In this document: positions 23,320 to 30,036 of the stretch, in pieces
Numbering within the stretch: the stretch's first letter is position 1
How the letters are laid out: every line of letters begins with the position of its first letter
Source of the DNA: Planctomycetota bacterium
GTDB taxonomy: Bacteria; Planctomycetota; SZUA-567; H5-PLA8
Assembly (NCBI GenBank): GCA_038227875.1
Contig: JBBRPR010000046.1
Span: forward strand, 1 to 64,000
Direction of reading: 5' to 3'
Length of the DNA: 64,000 nt
Translations under genes and position numbers: made by a program
The notes under the pieces: model-generated
Databases searched by the model: none
The model's input: only the letters and a program-made list of their open reading frames with translations
Told to the model about the DNA's origin: nothing

Positions 23320-24109
23320 AATATGAAGCCCGGCTCTATGGCTGGCACACTGGACAAGTCGACTTCGTCGATACTTTCAAAGAATACTCGAACAGTGTTA
23401 CGTGCCGCGAGTTTTGGCAATTGCGCGAGCTTTGGTTCGTTACGCAATCTTTGAAGTGCAATTGACTCCGCATCTGGAATCGTTGAGTGCGTGGTGCTGC
23501 GACCGACGCTATCTTCAAGCCAATCCGCTCGAGAACGCTGGTGAGATCGACACGACGCCGGAGGAAACGCGACGCGCGCTCACTGCCGACGAGATCAAGT
23601 TGCTACTGTCCAAGTGCAAGCCTGAGAGACGCACTTTGTATAAGCTTTCGATCTGCTCGGGCCTTCGCAAGAACGAGTTGATGTCGCTTACCGTCGTCGA
23701 CCTCGACGCCGCTAATTGCTGTCTCCGGCTCCGGCCAGAGTGGACGAAGAACAGGAAATCAGGCTGGCAACCGCTCCCTGCAGCGTTGACGGCGACCCTT
23801 GCCGCTGACGTGGAGGGGCTTCTCCCGACCGCTCCGTTAATCCACGTACCCAGCGACGCCAGTGCAAGATTCGAGACCGACCGTCGAAGAGCGGATTTGA
23901 AGAAAGAAACAGAGGACGGGGTCTGCAACTTCGCGTGCCTGCGCCAGACTTATATCACGATGGTCAACGATACGGGAGCCACAACCAAAGCAACACAAAC
24001 ACTGACTAGGCACAGTACGCCGTCGTTGACATTCAAAACGTATGCGCGTGCGCGGTCGGCTGAACTGGTTGGTGTGGTGGAAAAGCTGGCGCTGCTGGTT
24101 GGCTCTTGA
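23320..24109 (+). pseudogene. degenerate tyrosine recombinase fragment, paralogous to the island integrase
   Basis: WCCDRRYLQANPL...DTTP...RALTADEI...SGLRKNEL...FACLRQTY...LTRHST...TYAR; N-terminus missing and HxxR histidine replaced; left boundary approximate. Confidence 0.75.
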
Positions 24110-24357: not shown

Positions 24358-25599
24358 TTATACGCCCTGAGGGACTTGAACCCCCAATGGAATCTCGACG
24401 GGTTTCATACAAACACTAGCGGCATGACTGTTTACAATGTCACCCTCCGCCCCTACTGCAAGTCGTTGGGTTGCCATGGGGGCGGCGGCGGTCTGTTTCA
24501 GGGCTTCGGCAACAGATTCGGCCACGGCCCGCATTCGTTGCGCGTCCGGCTTGGCGTACGTGCTCATGGACATAGTGGCGGATGAGTGCCGGGCCAGCGT
24601 CATGATCGTTTTCAGGTCAGCCCCCGACTTCACCACGGAATTGATATAGCTCACCCGCAGGCTGTGGAACGTCGCCTTACCCGCGCCTTTGATTTCCTTT
24701 GTGATTCCAGCGTTGTCAAAGTCCCGGTCCAAATTCGCGCAACACGTTTCTTGGAGCGGCATCGGCAAAAGCGGTGCGTCCGGCTTCTTGCCGATCGACA
24801 GCGCGGCCAGTTCGTCGGCCAGTTCACGGGCAATGGGTTGCCGGGCGTCGCGGCGGTCCTTGCAGAATTCAGCGGCCAGCGGCAACGACGGCCCGAACAT
24901 GTCCAGATTGCCCACGGTCAGGTTGCGTAGTTCATTTTGCCGGTAGCCCGTTGCCAGGGCCACGCGATAGACCAAAGCCCTGTGCGGCGGCGCGGTGGCC
25001 AGCAGCTTTGCAATTTCGTCCGTGCTCAATTCGCGGTGCGGCATCTTCGGCGTGGTGTCGAACGCCACAATCGCGGCCAGCGGATCGGCGGCAAGGTATT
25101 GCCGATTCACGCACCAATCGAGGAAAGATGCGATCGCTTCACTGTACCCTTGCACTGTCTTTTCTGTCAGCGGTCCCGACTCGTCTTGACCGTGGGCCAG
25201 CAGTTCGCGCAATGCGATTTCCACGTCCGCCAATTCCACGTCTTGAATCGTCTGTAATTTCAGACGGTCGCCCCACCATTTCAACGTCCAGCCCTTTTTT
25301 CGGGCGTGGACCTTCGACCAACCAAAGCCGCGGCGGCCTCCACAACTTCGGCCCCATGCCAGATATTCGGACACCGTCGCGGCATAGTCGCGGGCCTTGT
25401 CCGATTCCTTCGGCGCGGGGCGGATGCCGTCGCGGATTTCATTTTCAATGATCTGGCGCCGGTTCGCCGTCCGCTCGGTTTCCGCGTAGCTCGTGGTGCC
25501 GGTTGCCTTCCGGCGCCGCCCCTTCCAGTCGCGATACTCGAATTTATAGCGCGGGTGGGGTTTGCCGTCCTTGTCGAAGGTTTGAAAGACATGTGGCAT
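24358..25599 (-). CDS. int: tyrosine recombinase/integrase (integrated-state form, 413 aa)
   Basis: TGYRQNEL, K(DRR), FHSLRVSY, LARHS, TYA catalytic motifs; N-terminal arm-binding-like YKFEYRDWKGRRRKATG. Confidence 0.93.
   Translation of the reverse strand: MPHVFQTFDKDGKPHPRYKFEYRDWKGRRRKATGTTSYAETERTANRRQIIENEIRDGIRPAPKESDKARDYAATVSEYLAWGRSCGGRRGFGWSKVHARKKGWTLKWWGDRLKLQTIQDVELADVEIALRELLAHGQDESGPLTEKTVQGYSEAIASFLDWCVNRQYLAADPLAAIVAFDTTPKMPHRELSTDEIAKLLATAPPHRALVYRVALATGYRQNELRNLTVGNLDMFGPSLPLAAEFCKDRRDARQPIARELADELAALSIGKKPDAPLLPMPLQETCCANLDRDFDNAGITKEIKGAGKATFHSLRVSYINSVVKSGADLKTIMTLARHSSATMSMSTYAKPDAQRMRAVAESVAEALKQTAAAPMATQRLAVGAEGDIVNSHAASVCMKPVEIPLGVQVPQGV
24360..24387. repeat. att core, distal copy (tRNA 3'-end duplication)
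   Basis: ATACGCCCTGAGGGACTTGAACCCCCAA identical to 29962-29989. Confidence 0.95.
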
Positions 25600-25601
25600 T
25601 G

Positions 25602-25814
25602 TCAGCCCTTTCCCTTTCGATGCGGCGCCATTATGAACGCCGATACAGTCAAACCCGCCATTCCCGCTTTTTCTCGCAGGCTTTCGTATTCAACTTCGCT
25701 CACGCGGATAACCACGTTGCGGCTTTTGGCGCGTTCTCCAAGTGACGGGCGGCCGGTGCGAAGCGCATCGGCTTCAATCTGTGCTTTCGTGCGTCGTTTT
25801 CGTTTCATACTCAT
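25602..25814 (-). CDS. ribbon-helix-helix / MobC-like DNA-binding protein
   Basis: GRP...NVVIRVSEVEYESLREKAGMAGLTVSAFI. Confidence 0.7.
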   Translation of the reverse strand: MSMKRKRRTKAQIEADALRTGRPSLGERAKSRNVVIRVSEVEYESLREKAGMAGLTVSAFIMAPHRKGKG

Positions 25815-25839
25815 ACTCTACTTTACGCATAACAATAAT

Positions 25840-26202
25840 TCAAGAAGCTTCGAGTTTTCTTGCGGCCCGTTCGGCGTCGCGGACCTGCCGTTCGGCGCGG
25901 GCTTCAATGTGGGCAAGAACTTTGCCGGTAAGCCAAGTGGACTTCCCCGCGAATCGGAACGGCGGCGGAAGTTCATGGCGTGACACCATTCGCCGGACGG
26001 TGCGTTTGGAAAGGTTCAACGCGGCCGACAGGGCGCATTCATCCAGCAGCGTCCGTTCCGGCAACGTCGCCAGCGCGGTGATCGTCCGACCCTGCCCGGC
26101 AGGCTTGGGTACGTCAATCGGCACAGGTGCCGGCGGCGGGAGCGCGCTTGCATGCGTGTTTTCCGGCGCCGTGGGAACGGTCGCGTCATCGTTGCTTGTC
26201 AT
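25840..26202 (-). CDS. AlpA/excisionase-like HTH protein
   Basis: LLDECALSAALNLSKRTVRRMVSRHELPPPFRFAGKSTW; ATGA overlap with Prim-Pol. Confidence 0.75.
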   Translation of the reverse strand: MTSNDDATVPTAPENTHASALPPPAPVPIDVPKPAGQGRTITALATLPERTLLDECALSAALNLSKRTVRRMVSRHELPPPFRFAGKSTWLTGKVLAHIEARAERQVRDAERAARKLEAS

Positions 26203-27419
26203 TCCGGTAATCCCCAAATCTCGAATGGCCAAAGGACAATGAATTTACTTGCCGGCGCGCCCGGCACGTTCTTCGCTCGATACGTGCACTGCAATAACGG
26301 TTCTGGCTTCTGTTTAAGTTTGTTGATCAACCACCACCCGCGTTTGGCATCGGCGAGCTGTAGCAAGGGCTTCAACATTCGACCGGAGAATTTAAAGTCA
26401 CGGCCTTTGCCAGCCCACCTTTGCATTTCGATGGCAATGGCAGCGACCATTTGAAGCTCGGACGACTTGTACACCAGGACACAGCGCGGCAGGGGTCGGG
26501 ACTGCACGGCCTGCCAGGCGATCTGTATAGGCTTTTCATCAAGTGTCACCCGCGCCGAATTATACCCCCGCTGCAGTTTGTCGCGGTACTCGTCTTCCGA
26601 TACCCCGGCACGAAAGAATGGTCTGGCATGAGACACCCACTTATTTTCAAGCTGTTCGTATTCACACCGCGTCAGTTCCCGACCCCACCGCTTTTCGAGC
26701 GTAATCAGCACACGGCCAAATCGAAAACATGCGGCGTCGTTTGTGTGCACTTTCTTCGGCAGTGACTCTTGCAGAACATACTTTAATTCACTTACGGATA
26801 TGCCGCAGTGGTTGCTGTGTACTGTTTCGCATGCCGCAGTGGTTGCTGTGTCGTCTGTGTTAGCTGTGAGTGCTGTGTCTTCTGTGTTAGCTGTAGTCGT
26901 TAGAGTGTTTATTAAAGTTTCGCACTCTTGACCCAGTCCGGCCGCAAACGGATCTACTTCCCGCACGGCCCCCGGCGGCAGCGGCACCAGCCATTCGTAG
27001 ATGCAGCCACTTGGATGCAGTGACGGCGGCAGCAAGCAGTACCCGCCTTTCCCGCGCAATTCACCGTCCTTGACCTTGATCGTTCGGATCGTGGTTTTGC
27101 TGGTGAAGTAGACGTGTCGGCCACGGGCGGTCACCACGGTCGGCAGCGTGCGAGCGAGTTCCGGAAAATCCGCCGCCCACGATTCATAAGTTTCCAGGGT
27201 GTCAAAGTCACGGCAGCACAGCCCGCCAGACACCGGTCCGAACACGACTGCCAGACCCGTGACGCTCGGCTGTTTGAACCATGTGGACAATTCCCCGTCG
27301 GTTGCCCGTCGCGACTGAAACGTCTTCCAGCTTTGCAGCGCGGCGCGTTTGTCCTTGCCGATCGGAATGACAGACCAGCCACGGCGGGCGTAGGCACAGG
27401 CGTTATCTAACAATGTCAT
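26199..27419 (-). CDS. bifunctional DNA primase/polymerase (Prim-Pol, N-terminal) replication protein
   Basis: AYARRGWSVIPI...GLAVVFG..SGGLCCRDFD...T.RGRHVYF...GGYCLLPPSLHPSGCIYEW. Confidence 0.88.
   Translation of the reverse strand: MTLLDNACAYARRGWSVIPIGKDKRAALQSWKTFQSRRATDGELSTWFKQPSVTGLAVVFGPVSGGLCCRDFDTLETYESWAADFPELARTLPTVVTARGRHVYFTSKTTIRTIKVKDGELRGKGGYCLLPPSLHPSGCIYEWLVPLPPGAVREVDPFAAGLGQECETLINTLTTTANTEDTALTANTDDTATTAACETVHSNHCGISVSELKYVLQESLPKKVHTNDAACFRFGRVLITLEKRWGRELTRCEYEQLENKWVSHARPFFRAGVSEDEYRDKLQRGYNSARVTLDEKPIQIAWQAVQSRPLPRCVLVYKSSELQMVAAIAIEMQRWAGKGRDFKFSGRMLKPLLQLADAKRGWWLINKLKQKPEPLLQCTYRAKNVPGAPASKFIVLWPFEIWGLPE
26800..26894. repeat. iteron-like direct repeats within the Prim-Pol gene
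   Basis: ATGCCGCAGTGGTTGCTGTGT x2 (26800, 26831); TGCTGTGTCKTCTGTGTTAGCTGT x2 (26844, 26871). Confidence 0.75.
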
Positions 27420-27709
27420 TGGCGGGTGCCTTTCGGGCGTTCAACCAATTGCCAAACCCGCTCCAAGTGGCGTTGCGACTCAGGCGTCACGGCCGGCGCG
27501 CAGCCGATGCACTCAATGATGCCAGCACAAAACAGCGCGTTCACAACGTGGCCGATTCGGGGAGTGCCGGGGATTCCGTACTTCTTGCGAGTACGGCTTG
27601 CCGTGGTCGGTCCGGTACCCAATTCTGTAAGAAAGCAGCGCCTGAAATCCGGCGCGGGATCCAAAACTGGCGGCTCACCAGCGGCAGAAAACAAGTCATC
27701 GCTTGTCAT
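27416..27709 (-). CDS. hypothetical element protein (possible winged helix)
   Basis: GGAG RBS, ATGA overlap with Prim-Pol. Confidence 0.6.
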   Translation of the reverse strand: MTSDDLFSAAGEPPVLDPAPDFRRCFLTELGTGPTTASRTRKKYGIPGTPRIGHVVNALFCAGIIECIGCAPAVTPESQRHLERVWQLVERPKGTRQ

Positions 27710-27899
27710 TGCCGCTCCAGTCCGAATGATTCTTGGACTCCAGGAAGGCGAATAGCCGTGCTCGATCGAATCGAATGGACTTGTCGGGCAAGAAGATTGC
27801 TGGAAGCAAGCCACGGCGGGCAAGCCTTGCCGCTTTGCCGTTTGGCAGCTTTAACAATTCATCTACTTCGGTGGGTGTGAGAAACTCAGACACGCGCAA
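27696..27899 (-). CDS. excisionase-like HTH DNA-binding protein
   Basis: FLTPTEVDELLKL...ARRGLLPAIFLPDKSIRFDRARL. Confidence 0.7.
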   Translation of the reverse strand: MRVSEFLTPTEVDELLKLPNGKAARLARRGLLPAIFLPDKSIRFDRARLFAFLESKNHSDWSGNDKR

Positions 27900-27950
27900 A
27901 CCCTCACTTTCCGAGAGTATTAACGCTTGTCGATAGCGGGATGTGGGCGG

Positions 27951-28640
27951 TCAGTTTTGCGGGGAGTTGCGGGAAGTCGACAGTTTTCGGTATTCGCGTG
28001 CACTTCCAGACCTGTTGTTGTGTTCTAAAAAGTGGGCTTTGGTCATCGCGTTCAACCAATCGGTTCGAGTTGTGCGATCGTACTTGTTTCCGAGCGTTCC
28101 GGCCCTGAACCATGTGCCCGTCGTTTTAGCAACAGCTTCTAAAAAGTATTGATGCACGGCCTCCCCAATTCCGCTGGGACAGGTCGGCTGTTTACTCGCC
28201 ACTTCGCCGCTGAATAGCCGATTTCGAACCAATGCCCGCTCCAAGTCTCTTGCAAGTTGCGTCGGGAAGGACCGTACGCGCTCTAACGTTCGCTCCCAGT
28301 GTCCGGCCTCTGCCAGGTCCACAGCGTCTTTCCAATCGTTTTCTAACTGTCGCTGTCTGTCGATGAAATCCGTAAGGACATTGAGCTCTTGTTCGTGAAG
28401 GGGGTATTTTTCAGTGACGGCAATTTCTTTGCACACATTGCCGAAAAGCGTCTCTTTCCAGTTGCGATCGCTCAAGTACACGGACATTTGCGAAGGACCA
28501 ACGGCGCCATGTCCTCTGACTTTCAGGCTGCCTGTTACGCCGTCGAGTCGTTCGGACAGTTCTTGACCGTAACGCGCTCGCTCTGTGTCGATCGCCTTTT
28601 GGCCTTCGGTGCGTACTGCATCCCAATTCGGTGCATTCAT
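27951..28640 (-). CDS. hypothetical element protein
   Basis: 229-aa ORF with GGAG RBS, same strand as the other element genes. Confidence 0.55.
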   Translation of the reverse strand: MNAPNWDAVRTEGQKAIDTERARYGQELSERLDGVTGSLKVRGHGAVGPSQMSVYLSDRNWKETLFGNVCKEIAVTEKYPLHEQELNVLTDFIDRQRQLENDWKDAVDLAEAGHWERTLERVRSFPTQLARDLERALVRNRLFSGEVASKQPTCPSGIGEAVHQYFLEAVAKTTGTWFRAGTLGNKYDRTTRTDWLNAMTKAHFLEHNNRSGSAREYRKLSTSRNSPQN

Positions 28641-28671
28641 GGCGCCGCTCCAGCGCTGCTCATTTGGTTAT

Positions 28672-28724
28672 GCCGGGGGCTGTCCAGTTGAGCGACTGGA
28701 CGGGGAGCTACCCCTGCCCCCAGC
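28672..28724 (-). ncRNA. candidate structured RNA (three-way junction) leader
   Basis: outer stem GCTGGGGGC/GCCCCCGGC enclosing hairpins GGGG-TAGCT-CCCC and GTCCAGT-CGCTCA-ACTGGAC. Confidence 0.4.
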
Positions 28725-28731
28725 TGTGCTC

Positions 28732-29244
28732 TCAATGCTGCCGATTCAGAGAGCGGTAGATCACAATCCAGACGCCGAGCAGCGTAGGCCAAAAGACTAA
28801 ATTGGAGAGGGTGCACGTAACGAACAGGTGGAAGATCCCCGCCGACGACATGCCTCCGCCTGACAGCGATACGACATCAACAAACGAGATTACTGCGAAG
28901 ATGACAGCAACGCACGTGCTCCACACCAGCCACCGATTGCCAGCCTGTTTACTCTCAAGCACCAACGTAACGAGGTTGGTTTCGGTACTGCGATCATTGC
29001 TGGCTGGCGCAACGGCCCGCTCGAACTTCGCGCCAGTCCTGCCGGAACTTTGGTCCCATGCAGAGCGAGCGGATGGCGTTTCGCTGCGGGTCCCTTGGTT
29101 CCCCCCAGCGCCAACCGCGTTAGCAGCTTTCTGCGCTTCTCTGTGGGTACGGAATATTCCGGGGCTGCAATGCTCGCAGACACTCTTACCCGACGACGAA
29201 GTTAACAACTCGGCCGCCTGCCCGCAGTTCTCGCATTGTTCCAT
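28732..29244 (-). CDS. Zn-finger + TM cargo protein
   Basis: CENCG...CEHC at the N-terminus, C-terminal hydrophobic helices; GAGGAG RBS. Confidence 0.6.
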   Translation of the reverse strand: MEQCENCGQAAELLTSSSGKSVCEHCSPGIFRTHREAQKAANAVGAGGNQGTRSETPSARSAWDQSSGRTGAKFERAVAPASNDRSTETNLVTLVLESKQAGNRWLVWSTCVAVIFAVISFVDVVSLSGGGMSSAGIFHLFVTCTLSNLVFWPTLLGVWIVIYRSLNRQH

Positions 29245-29593
29245 AGGCTCCTCACTTCACTTTTTGCCCAAGGTTATTTTCATCCATTGCGTCTGTGATC
29301 CGCCGGTTCGGACCGATCGTCACATTCAGGTTGGGAGTCTATCGCGCATGCCCCGCAACGCAGCAATAAAGCGCCGCCAGCTGCTGCATTCTGGGGCGTT
29401 TTCATAGGTGGATTTCCCTTGGGGGCTGTGTGGAATTTAAAGACGGGCACGCGCTTTGGGGTGTCATCGGCTAACCAGTGGGGGTGCCGGGCACCTTAGA
29501 AAATTAGGCGACTACGCAACTCGAATCGTATCCGATCGGTGCCAACGCTTGCTTTTCAATGCACGCGAATGCCGGGAGCAGTGGTCGGGGTGG

Positions 29594-29989
29594 TCACACG
29601 GGGCGAAATAGAAAGGCCACGTCTTCACCGTGGCCCATTCCCTGCATTTGCGGCGCGTCTGGCGAGCTCTCTACTTCGAACCCGATGTCTTTGACCATCG
29701 CGACGATGCCAGCGCGTAGCGCGTCCGGCAGCTTATCCCACGCGGCCACGACGGCGGCAAGATCGGCGGGCAGCGGATTCCGTTGGGTTGCCATTGGGTT
29801 GAACGCGTGGCCGGACGCGGTGTCTGTCTGTCGCGGTTGCGTCCGCTCATTGTCGAGCGTCGCTCGTACAACGTCGGGTGTCTTTTGTTGTTCGACGAAT
29901 TGCGGCGCGGATTGACTCGAAACTGACGCGGTCCCGTCCGCTCTTGTAACGCCTTTAGAGAATACGCCCTGAGGGACTTGAACCCCCAA
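29594..29989 (-). other. integrase C-terminal extension segment (in frame with int only after excision)
   Basis: frame begins inside the att core (LGVQVPQGV, the same residues that end Int) and stays open for 131 codons, including LPADLAAVVAAWDKLPDALRAGIVAMVK. Confidence 0.7.
29962..29989. repeat. att core, tRNA-proximal copy
   Basis: identical to 24360-24387; overlaps the tRNA T-arm and acceptor stem. Confidence 0.95.
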
Positions 29990-30036
29990 CCTCCTGGTTC
30001 GAAGCCAGGCACTCTATCCAGTTGAGCTAAGGGCGC
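29963..30036 (-). tRNA. tRNA-Arg(TCG)
   Basis: GCGCCCT-TA-GCTC..GAGT-G-CCTGG CT TCG AA CCAGG-AGGTT-GGGGG TTCAAGT CCCTC-AGGGCGT-A cloverleaf; CCA not encoded. Confidence 0.95.

Follow-up and report, generated by a model that had tools for sequence, protein, structure and literature searches.

What becomes of a site-specific recombinase when the site on which it acts lies within its own gene? This question is raised by a 5.6-kb island in a Planctomycetota bacterium (assembly GCA_038227875.1), located in positions 1-64,000 of contig JBBRPR010000046.1, the stretch of DNA that was analyzed here as a whole and is called the window. An exact 28-nt direct repeat (24360-24387 and 29962-29989) borders the island at a tRNA-Arg(TCG) gene, and a preliminary description of the window had proposed that this repeat is the core of an attachment (att) site read as part of the integrase gene int, so that excision would exchange a 413-amino-acid integrase (Int) for a form of 535 amino acids. 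Our analysis leads us to conclude, with good though not complete confidence, that attP is situated within int and that integration removes from the enzyme a conserved tail of 30 residues, which excision restores. This conclusion is built on the anatomy of the locus, the conservation of the tail at the protein level, the common frame of integrase and tail in related islands and the fused open reading frames (ORFs) present on circular contigs.

The att core is read by the integrase and by a detached reading frame

The 28-nt core is present in only two copies in the window when up to 3 mismatches are allowed, and none is expected from 100 shuffles. ARAGORN predicts the tRNA-Arg with anticodon TCG on the minus strand at 29963-30036, and therefore the proximal core (attL, 29962-29989, minus strand) is the 3' end of this tRNA, the integration target, and the distal core (attR, 24360-24387, minus strand) is the displaced tRNA 3' end. 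All genes of the island are on the minus strand, with an ORF of 131 codons directly behind the tRNA and the integrase gene at the far end.

The integrated form of the tyrosine integrase (Int-S, 413 amino acids; 24358-25599, minus strand) matches PF00589 with an E-value of 1.1e-12, exceeding the curated cut-off, and this is the only family that Pfam finds in it. The distal core supplies Int codons 405-413, read as LGVQVPQGV, and the first base of the stop codon TAA, which straddles the core end in such a way that its T is the last core base. The proximal core is read as the same LGVQVPQGV in the frame of Int and opens the 131-amino-acid ORF (29594-29989, minus strand), in which it is followed by 122 codons (29594-29961, minus strand) that make up the linker and tail, the detached 3' part of int. 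This detached part has no start codon of its own, the sole possible start being a TTG inside the tRNA. Joining the 404 codons before the distal core to the 131 codons of the ORF gives 535 codons without a stop, a length that is obtained by frame arithmetic only. The catalytic residues R220, K247, H312, R315, H338, and Y348 all precede residue 404 and so stay in the integrated form; in the alignment of the Int family they are invariant, except for the near-invariant K247. On each of these points (the reading of both cores, the stop at the core boundary, the length of the rejoined frame and the intact catalytic set) the sequence agrees with what the preliminary description had claimed, and its positions and counts are correct throughout.

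A search for Int homologues yielded 127 at E<=1e-3, and almost all of them are in Planctomycetota assemblies. The 120 homologues that were listed very often terminate in translated tRNA sequence, many of them at or shortly past a tRNA-like core; an integrase frame that runs on into the core is thus usual in this family.

The detached tail is a module conserved as protein

When the 131-amino-acid ORF was searched against 1.84 billion representative proteins, 120 clusters were obtained at E<=1e-3, all of them composed of short proteins (37-227 amino acids) that carry the same motif at their C-terminal end. Its consensus is approximately LP.DLAAVV.AW..LP.A.RAGIVAMVKA, and in the window the motif, LPADLAAVVAAWDKLPDALRAGIVAMVKD, occupies residues 72-100 of the ORF (29690-29776, minus strand). 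It comprises two helices, which are modeled with confidence in the fused homologue P0041 described below. The residues W84 and P88 never vary in the motif, and L77, A83, L87, A93, G94, I95, and A97 hardly do. The profile of the tail matches 85 of the 401 genomes of the phylum that were sampled (58 of the 243 high-quality ones). Many of the predicted tail proteins open with translated tRNA ends (GFEP.., GSNP.., GLEP..), and when the 350 nt on either side of the tail were scanned in 50 loci, a T-loop-like motif was found upstream in 38 of them and downstream in 2. The statement in the preliminary description that orphan mini-ORFs of this kind occur beside planctomycete tRNAs is thus borne out.

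Which level the conservation acts upon can be read from the codons. At conserved columns of the tail, six synonymous codons are used for Leu 36, five for Leu 46, and four each for Pro 47 and Ala 42, and pairwise differences at codon positions 1, 2, and 3 amount to 0.51, 0.42, and 0.63, respectively (46 columns, 31 tails). The use of many synonymous codons and the variability of the third position, the highest of the three, indicate a constraint on the protein and not on the DNA. It is hardly probable at all, therefore, that the block behind the core owes its conservation to a role as DNA or RNA, such as that of arm sites for Int or of a structured transcript. Element-specific repeats resembling arm sites do occupy part of the region, as such an explanation would have it, but they sit in the variable linker outside the motif, and the 4-6 codons used for the invariant residues of the motif are a protein-level signature.

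The tail matches no Pfam family (62 members tested) and has no relative among PDB sequences, and in the ESM Atlas only unnamed planctomycete clusters were retrieved. A tblastn search of 50,697 phage records gave no match, and among viral contigs a single distant match was found, these elements not being part of that viral collection.

Integrase and tail share one frame in integrated relatives

In order to compare frames in other genomes, 40 regions extending up to 20 kb downstream of tail matches were inspected. In 14 of them a family integrase is encoded on the same strand at a distance of 5-18 kb, and a repeat of 17-67 nt is common to the 3' end of its gene and to the DNA preceding the tail. 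The frames of integrase and tail agree through this repeat in all 14 islands, and they are open from the gene to the core and from the core to the motif. The repeats derive from at least 10 different tRNA genes, with targets among tRNAs for Asn, Ala, Ser (four anticodons), Leu (two anticodons), Arg, and Tyr. As conservative recombination keeps frames, this test shows for each of these diverged lineages that the free form has a continuous ORF across attP. Neither random frames nor a lack of protein conservation, which the preliminary description had named as outcomes that would speak against its proposal, was found.

Two main geometries were distinguished: in the first, which is that of the window, the integrase reads into a displaced fragment of the tRNA in sense orientation, and in the second it reads antisense into a complete tRNA. 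Where an integrase abuts a tail that is not its cognate, the frames differ; examples are L047, in which a second tail follows attR, and L026/L041, located at the end of a contig. As the integrase of L047 shares its frame with the cognate tail, 11 kb upstream, but not with the foreign one, this locus serves as an internal control.

In 24 of the 40 regions no complete family integrase was found downstream of the tail. Nine of these 24 end at a contig end (L041, L048-L050, L086, L092, L095-L097), and in L041 the integrase gene lies directly upstream of the tail instead. In two more regions (L056 and L084) an integrase is present but no shared repeat was detected. Taken as a whole, the 26 loci without a mapped cognate integrase comprise tails that are orphans, loci cut off by a contig end, and islands whose length exceeded the region inspected.

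The agreement in frame also bears on whether the 413-amino-acid form alone is functional, with the downstream frame being a leftover of a longer ancestral gene and the island possibly a dead remnant. The short form does hold all catalytic residues, many homologues end at or just after a tRNA-like core, orphan or decayed tails are common, and a circle of the window element was not detected. However, conservation of amino acids with free synonymous change across 85 genomes is not expected of a leftover. Nor would a leftover have kept an open, common frame with the integrase in all 14 islands, which have diverged and differ in their cores, and in the window itself the two core copies are identical and neither frame is broken. 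We consider this explanation improbable.

Several loci showed arrangements of their own. In L094 (G280:C2), which represents a third geometry, integrase and tail have in common a 26-nt repeat that corresponds to the acceptor and D arm, and thus to the 5' part, of a tRNA-Ser in sense orientation. In L039 (G068:C2) and L042 (G041:C4) each island end has a predicted, complete tRNA-Ala(TGC), the shared repeat measuring 51 nt and 25 nt, respectively; the greater part of the tRNA gene seems to travel with these elements, and their tail begins about 30 nt past the antisense tRNA. Tandem tails or tails at a foreign att site, out of frame with the adjacent integrase, were observed in L047 (12788-12958), L013/L050 (1900-2055), and L026/L041, where two different elements seem to have been inserted one after the other at a single tRNA.

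Natural fusions and circular forms

Seven of the 120 listed Int homologues (496-606 amino acids) end in the tail motif, preceded by a stretch resembling tRNA and by a linker of variable sequence. An eighth fused homologue is marginal and a ninth (P0009) was recognized by eye only. One of the seven, P0017, is encoded on L058, a contig of 6430 nt with an exact terminal overlap of 127 nt, the signature of a circular molecule. L058 possesses a Prim-Pol gene and a helix-turn-helix (HTH) gene as does the island of the window, contains no tRNA gene, and has a single ORF of 520 amino acids that spans integrase and tail. A second contig, L107, has 8171 nt and a terminal overlap of 55 nt, and its integrase crosses the contig ends, passes through an antisense-tRNA core and continues into a canonical tail, all in one frame. 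A protein search with a 58-amino-acid region for further fusions returned the query alone, E-values being weak against 5.8 billion sequences. Together with the 14 islands in frame, the seven fusions and the two circular contigs uphold the earlier proposal that attP is inside int and that excision would restore a helical tail.

The same observations make it quite improbable that the tail is a separate small gene with its own start at the tRNA-proximal end of the island, its frame with int being a by-product of a compact att region. Stand-alone tail proteins within the size range given above are often predicted by gene callers, among them one from the ORF of the window, and most genomic tails lack a family integrase nearby, as would be expected of such a gene. 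Yet no start is conserved, the N-termini being of all lengths and many of them lying inside the translated tRNA; the frame shared by every cognate pair has a chance of about 1 in 3 per pair even before stops are taken into account; neighbors that are not cognate are out of frame; and in the natural fusions and on the circular contigs integrase and tail form one ORF.

Two assignments outside the phylum were noticed in the course of these searches. A full integrase of the family is encoded at a tRNA-Val in a Candidatus Hydrogenedentota assembly (L101), and the circular contig L107 carries the bin name of an actinobacterium; unless both were binned wrongly, the integrase family extends beyond Planctomycetota.

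Observations that weigh against an attP within int

Several observations weigh against the proposal that integration and excision remove and restore the tail. The open frame of 122 codons in the window is weak evidence when taken alone, because 20% of all windows of 122 codons, in six frames of this G+C-rich DNA, are free of stops, and the case therefore rests on the comparative data. There, a cognate integrase could be mapped (within about 18 kb) for only 14 of the 40 tail loci, and in L026/L041 the integrase is located immediately before a tail yet out of frame with it. In a sample that started from integrases, L099, L101, L105, and L106 could not be scored, as no repeat of the core at the integrase end was found within 10 kb upstream. 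A gene caller predicts a 66-amino-acid protein (P0122) from an internal ATG of the tail ORF of the window, and independent translation of the tail is therefore possible. The four other tail copies in the same genome are orphans, some of them with internal stops, and its other integrases of the family are fragmentary or frameshifted (C121, C18, C41, and C122). Also, no named relative in Pfam, PDB sequences, or the Atlas points to a binding partner or role of the tail.

Finally, the junction 24388/29961, for which the preliminary description had suggested a search, did not turn up: neither a circle junction nor an empty site of the window element was found in the assembled contigs of two sediment-metagenome runs from one study, of which one is probably the run behind the assembly itself, a search that, being confined to assembled contigs, is uninformative in either direction. 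As no circular junction was seen, the element of the window may be inactive today. An odd joint from 27507 to 25077, with 40 unmatched letters between, was encountered in the metagenome contigs and is unrelated to the att sites.

The four additional tail-like copies of the genome are located at C11:13975-14091, C11:20145-20240, C113:10041-10166, and C135:3954-4106. The only intact pair of integrase and tail in the 9.3-Mb assembly is that of the window.

Arm-like repeats and a probably disordered linker around the core

An 18-nt direct repeat flanks the core on both sides. Its left copy (24464-24481, minus strand) lies within int, 94 nt before the core, and is a candidate P arm site; its right copy (29781-29798, minus strand), a candidate P' arm site, lies 164 nt after the core and just before the tail motif. 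The two copies (17/18 identical, 14 exact) are the only ones in the window, and because this repeat flanks the core, the peptide PMATQR occurs on both sides. In 10 of 12 elements the best direct match from flank to flank scores higher than 95% of 132 comparisons made between different elements, and the match of the window scores 15 when the 99th percentile is 14. The flanking repeats are element-specific and often internally doubled. Judging from their sequence and position, the repeats on both sides of the core are likely candidates for arm-type Int sites. The duplication of PMATQR was also considered as the decayed 3' end of an older integrase, and this idea was rejected as similar element-specific repeats are present in 10 of the 12 elements.

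The fused homologue P0041 was modeled with AlphaFold 2. Its body has a predicted local distance difference test (pLDDT) value above 90, the linker (residues 444-525) is below 50, and two helices of the tail (531-542 and 545-559) reach about 93. Residues 1-419 of this model align with full-length lambda Int (1z1b_A) at a Z score of 19.2 over 319 residues with a root-mean-square deviation of 12.1, and the fold matches lambda, Tn1549, and integron integrases at Z scores of 17-19. That the alignment with lambda starts from residue 1 of the model is consistent with the presence of an arm-binding N-terminal domain. From the positions of repeat, core, and repeat, the entire attP of about 300 bp seems to lie inside the frame of int, where it occupies the long and probably disordered linker between the catalytic domain and the tail. 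In a disordered linker a DNA site of 300 bp can be encoded at little cost to the protein. Prediction of a complex between Int residues 1-385 and tail residues 64-110 gave no answer (a score of zero in a run that was made without controls) and is not counted as evidence.

A motif of the approximate form QR.AVGAE is kept throughout the family 20-30 residues before the core (at about residues 383-392 of the Int of the window). It is situated between the catalytic domain and the core and adjoins the left repeat, and may reflect a constraint on either the protein or the P arm.

Other genes of the island and its surroundings

The gene for a Prim-Pol replicase of 406 amino acids (26199-27419, minus strand; PF09250, E 1.3e-19) is of the type also present on the circular relative L058. 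Immediately upstream of int a NikA-like small protein of 70 amino acids is encoded (25602-25814, minus strand; PF21983, E 4.9e-7). Two further genes have products resembling HTH_17, the helix-turn-helix of the excisionase family: a protein of 67 amino acids (27696-27899, minus strand; PF12728, E 1.3e-7) is a candidate directionality factor, and one of 130 amino acids (25840-26232, minus strand) is a candidate excisionase or regulator with a match to PF12728 (E 2.2e-4) that, at 21.9 bits, is below the Pfam cut-off of 27. The island also has several small ORFs without a family. With its Prim-Pol, its HTH proteins, and its lambda-type tyrosine integrase, the island is an integrative plasmid-like element in the 3' end of tRNA-Arg(TCG).

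Within the Prim-Pol gene, three imperfect 27-nt direct repeats at 26805-26889 encode a repetitive stretch rich in T, A, N, and D between the N-terminal Prim-Pol domain and the remainder of the protein. Just beyond attR, on the opposite strand and directed at the displaced core, a piece of 235 amino acids from a second integrase of the same family is encoded (23402-24109, plus strand; profile positions 109-362, E 2e-67; PF00589, E 1.5e-8). Its geometry is that expected of an older element of the antisense type that was formerly in the same tRNA-Arg; no tail and no third copy of the core remain of such an element in the window.

Comparison with known systems

The closest known arrangement is that of the myxophage Mx8, which the preliminary description had invoked as precedent. 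According to PMC6070905, the attP of Mx8 lies within its int gene and integration makes a new 3' end that alters Int without destroying it, and PMC4383910 describes island-finding software that exempts integrases that "extend across attP", naming Mx8 and SSV. In both Mx8 and the planctomycete island, a tyrosine integrase of similar length (533 amino acids in Mx8, about 535 here) acts at a tRNA gene, the core is read within the ORF downstream of the catalytic tyrosine (here codons 405-413, the tyrosine being Y348), the 110-120 or so residues after the core are exchanged on integration, and a shorter form results (here 413 amino acids versus 535 codons). The Int of Mx8 contains a stretch, STGLEPV, that resembles an antisense tRNA and is followed by about 110 residues. 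Abstracts on Mx8 from 1999 reportedly mention arm sequences on both sides of the core within int and a form IntX that is less active and limits excision, and the principle of an attP within int is said to have been published for Mx8 between 1996 and 1999. The precedent is therefore apt as far as the layout goes. The proteins themselves differ: with the hidden Markov model of the tail no match to Mx8 Int is obtained at E<=100, even when its filters are disabled, the catalytic parts match weakly (114 of 430 positions of the Int profile), and Mx8 was not among the phage matches of the Int of the window. Furthermore, Mx8 is a phage of 49 kb from another host phylum whereas the elements studied here are Prim-Pol plasmid-like islands of 5-16 kb, and the planctomycete tail is a conserved module common to more than 100 clusters.

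The second precedent that had been named, the integrase of SSV1, fits less well. PMC8371274 describes the "suicidal" integrases of SSV1, pTN3, and pT26-2, in which att lies in the gene and gene, site, and directionality form a compact module, and there self-disrupting integrases are presented as confined to archaea. What is shared is the att within the integrase gene and the partition of the gene by integration. In contrast, the split in SSV-type genes parts the N-terminal from the catalytic portion and thereby destroys the enzyme, both pieces becoming inactive pseudogenes, whereas in the planctomycete island the catalytic residues and the N-terminal domain stay together in one ORF of 413 amino acids and the tail alone is lost. 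The families also differ, SSV-type integrases belonging to PF16795 (Phage_integr_3; PMC8371274) and the integrase described here to PF00589.

A cut within a coding sequence also underlies the integration-dependent immunity of the mycobacteriophages BPs and Brujita and the system of the corynephage CyranoPS. PMC9262239 and the bioRxiv preprint 10.64898/2026.10.29.762952 report that in these phages attP overlaps a tRNA 3' end and lies in the 3' part of the repressor gene, that integration removes a C-terminal segment and that a base adjacent to the core creates a new stop; they also argue that an attP of the size of that of lambda would not fit into a coding sequence. The stop made by the junction is like the TAA found here. 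In those phages it is the repressor that is cut, with removal of an ssrA-like degradation tag, whereas here it is int, and the detached ORF ends in ...AFLFRPV, its conserved part being the helical motif of 30 residues and not a terminal tag of the -LAA type. Also, the mycobacteriophage integrases are "armless" and use a core-only attP, and the planctomycete enzyme is lambda-like with an N-terminal domain and arm-like repeats.

With lambda-type systems the island shares the catalytic domain of PF00589 with the residues R-K-H-R-H-Y, the target at a tRNA 3' end, the repeats flanking the core, and neighboring genes of the HTH_17 excisionase type. In lambda, attP is outside int and Int ends about 15 residues after the tyrosine; in the free form of the planctomycete integrase, about 190 residues follow the catalytic tyrosine. 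A search of full-text literature returned nothing on an attP within int for this planctomycete integrase family.

A proposed cycle of the integrase gene

The structural part of the mechanism that we propose is shown by the anatomy of the locus and by its relatives: int is a single ORF of 535 codons in the free circle, encoding a long form (Int-L) that consists of the body, the linker carrying attP, and the tail. Integration recombines the core and thereby cuts int, leaving the catalytic part at the far end of the island, where Int-S (413 amino acids) ends at the TAA formed by the junction of core and chromosome. The remainder of the linker and the tail are stranded behind the tRNA without a start codon, and excision would rejoin the gene.

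Whether the presence or absence of the tail alters the action of Int, as a feedback from the state of the product like that reported for IntP and IntX of Mx8, is a matter on which we see about even chances. The version that we prefer, at similarly balanced chances, is that Int-L would be the efficient, integration-proficient form of an incoming or excised circle and that Int-S would be a weakened or restrained form holding the island until the HTH_17 excisionase acts. The tail might then be a module for protein-protein contacts that, by way of the flexible linker, reaches neighboring subunits of the recombination tetramer. Contact with protein appears likelier than DNA binding as the tail is hydrophobic and amphipathic, presents a helix face of small residues in a small-xxx-small pattern (A93/G94...A97), and is borne on a long tether. 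Alternatively, the tail could be a stability signal or could contact the Prim-Pol replicase.

A broader reading, which we regard as possible but somewhat doubtful, is that the tail is a portable "state sensor" used throughout the phylum, made only in the circle and toggling Int between a long proficient and a short restrained form. The same tail is combined with at least two differing integrase bodies, with many tRNA cores, and with both orientations, for which reason it may have a conserved docking partner. If this holds true, directionality would be written in part into the topology of the gene; candidates for the docking partner would be another Int subunit, the Prim-Pol replicase, or a host factor, and through docking the free circle would have its replication linked to integration. 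An attP of lambda size with its arms in a disordered coding linker would, in that case, be a general solution to the constraint that keeps mycobacteriophage systems armless.

Significance

So far, Mx8 has been the sole example cited from bacteria of an integrase whose C-terminus is changed by the integration that it carries out. Noteworthy features here are the occurrence throughout a phylum, a conserved tail module not described before, circular forms found in nature, and probable arm sites within the ORF. The 30-residue module, which had not been annotated, underlies hundreds of orphan "hypothetical proteins" beside tRNA genes that are now explained, and for programs that search for islands the tail is a marker of the tRNA-proximal island end. 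With 5.6 kb, two protein forms, and a defined attP, the element offers a simple system in which to test how a recombinase can sense the state, free or integrated, of its element. The principle was already known from Mx8; in these planctomycetes a large family of small elements that integrate follows it as a rule.

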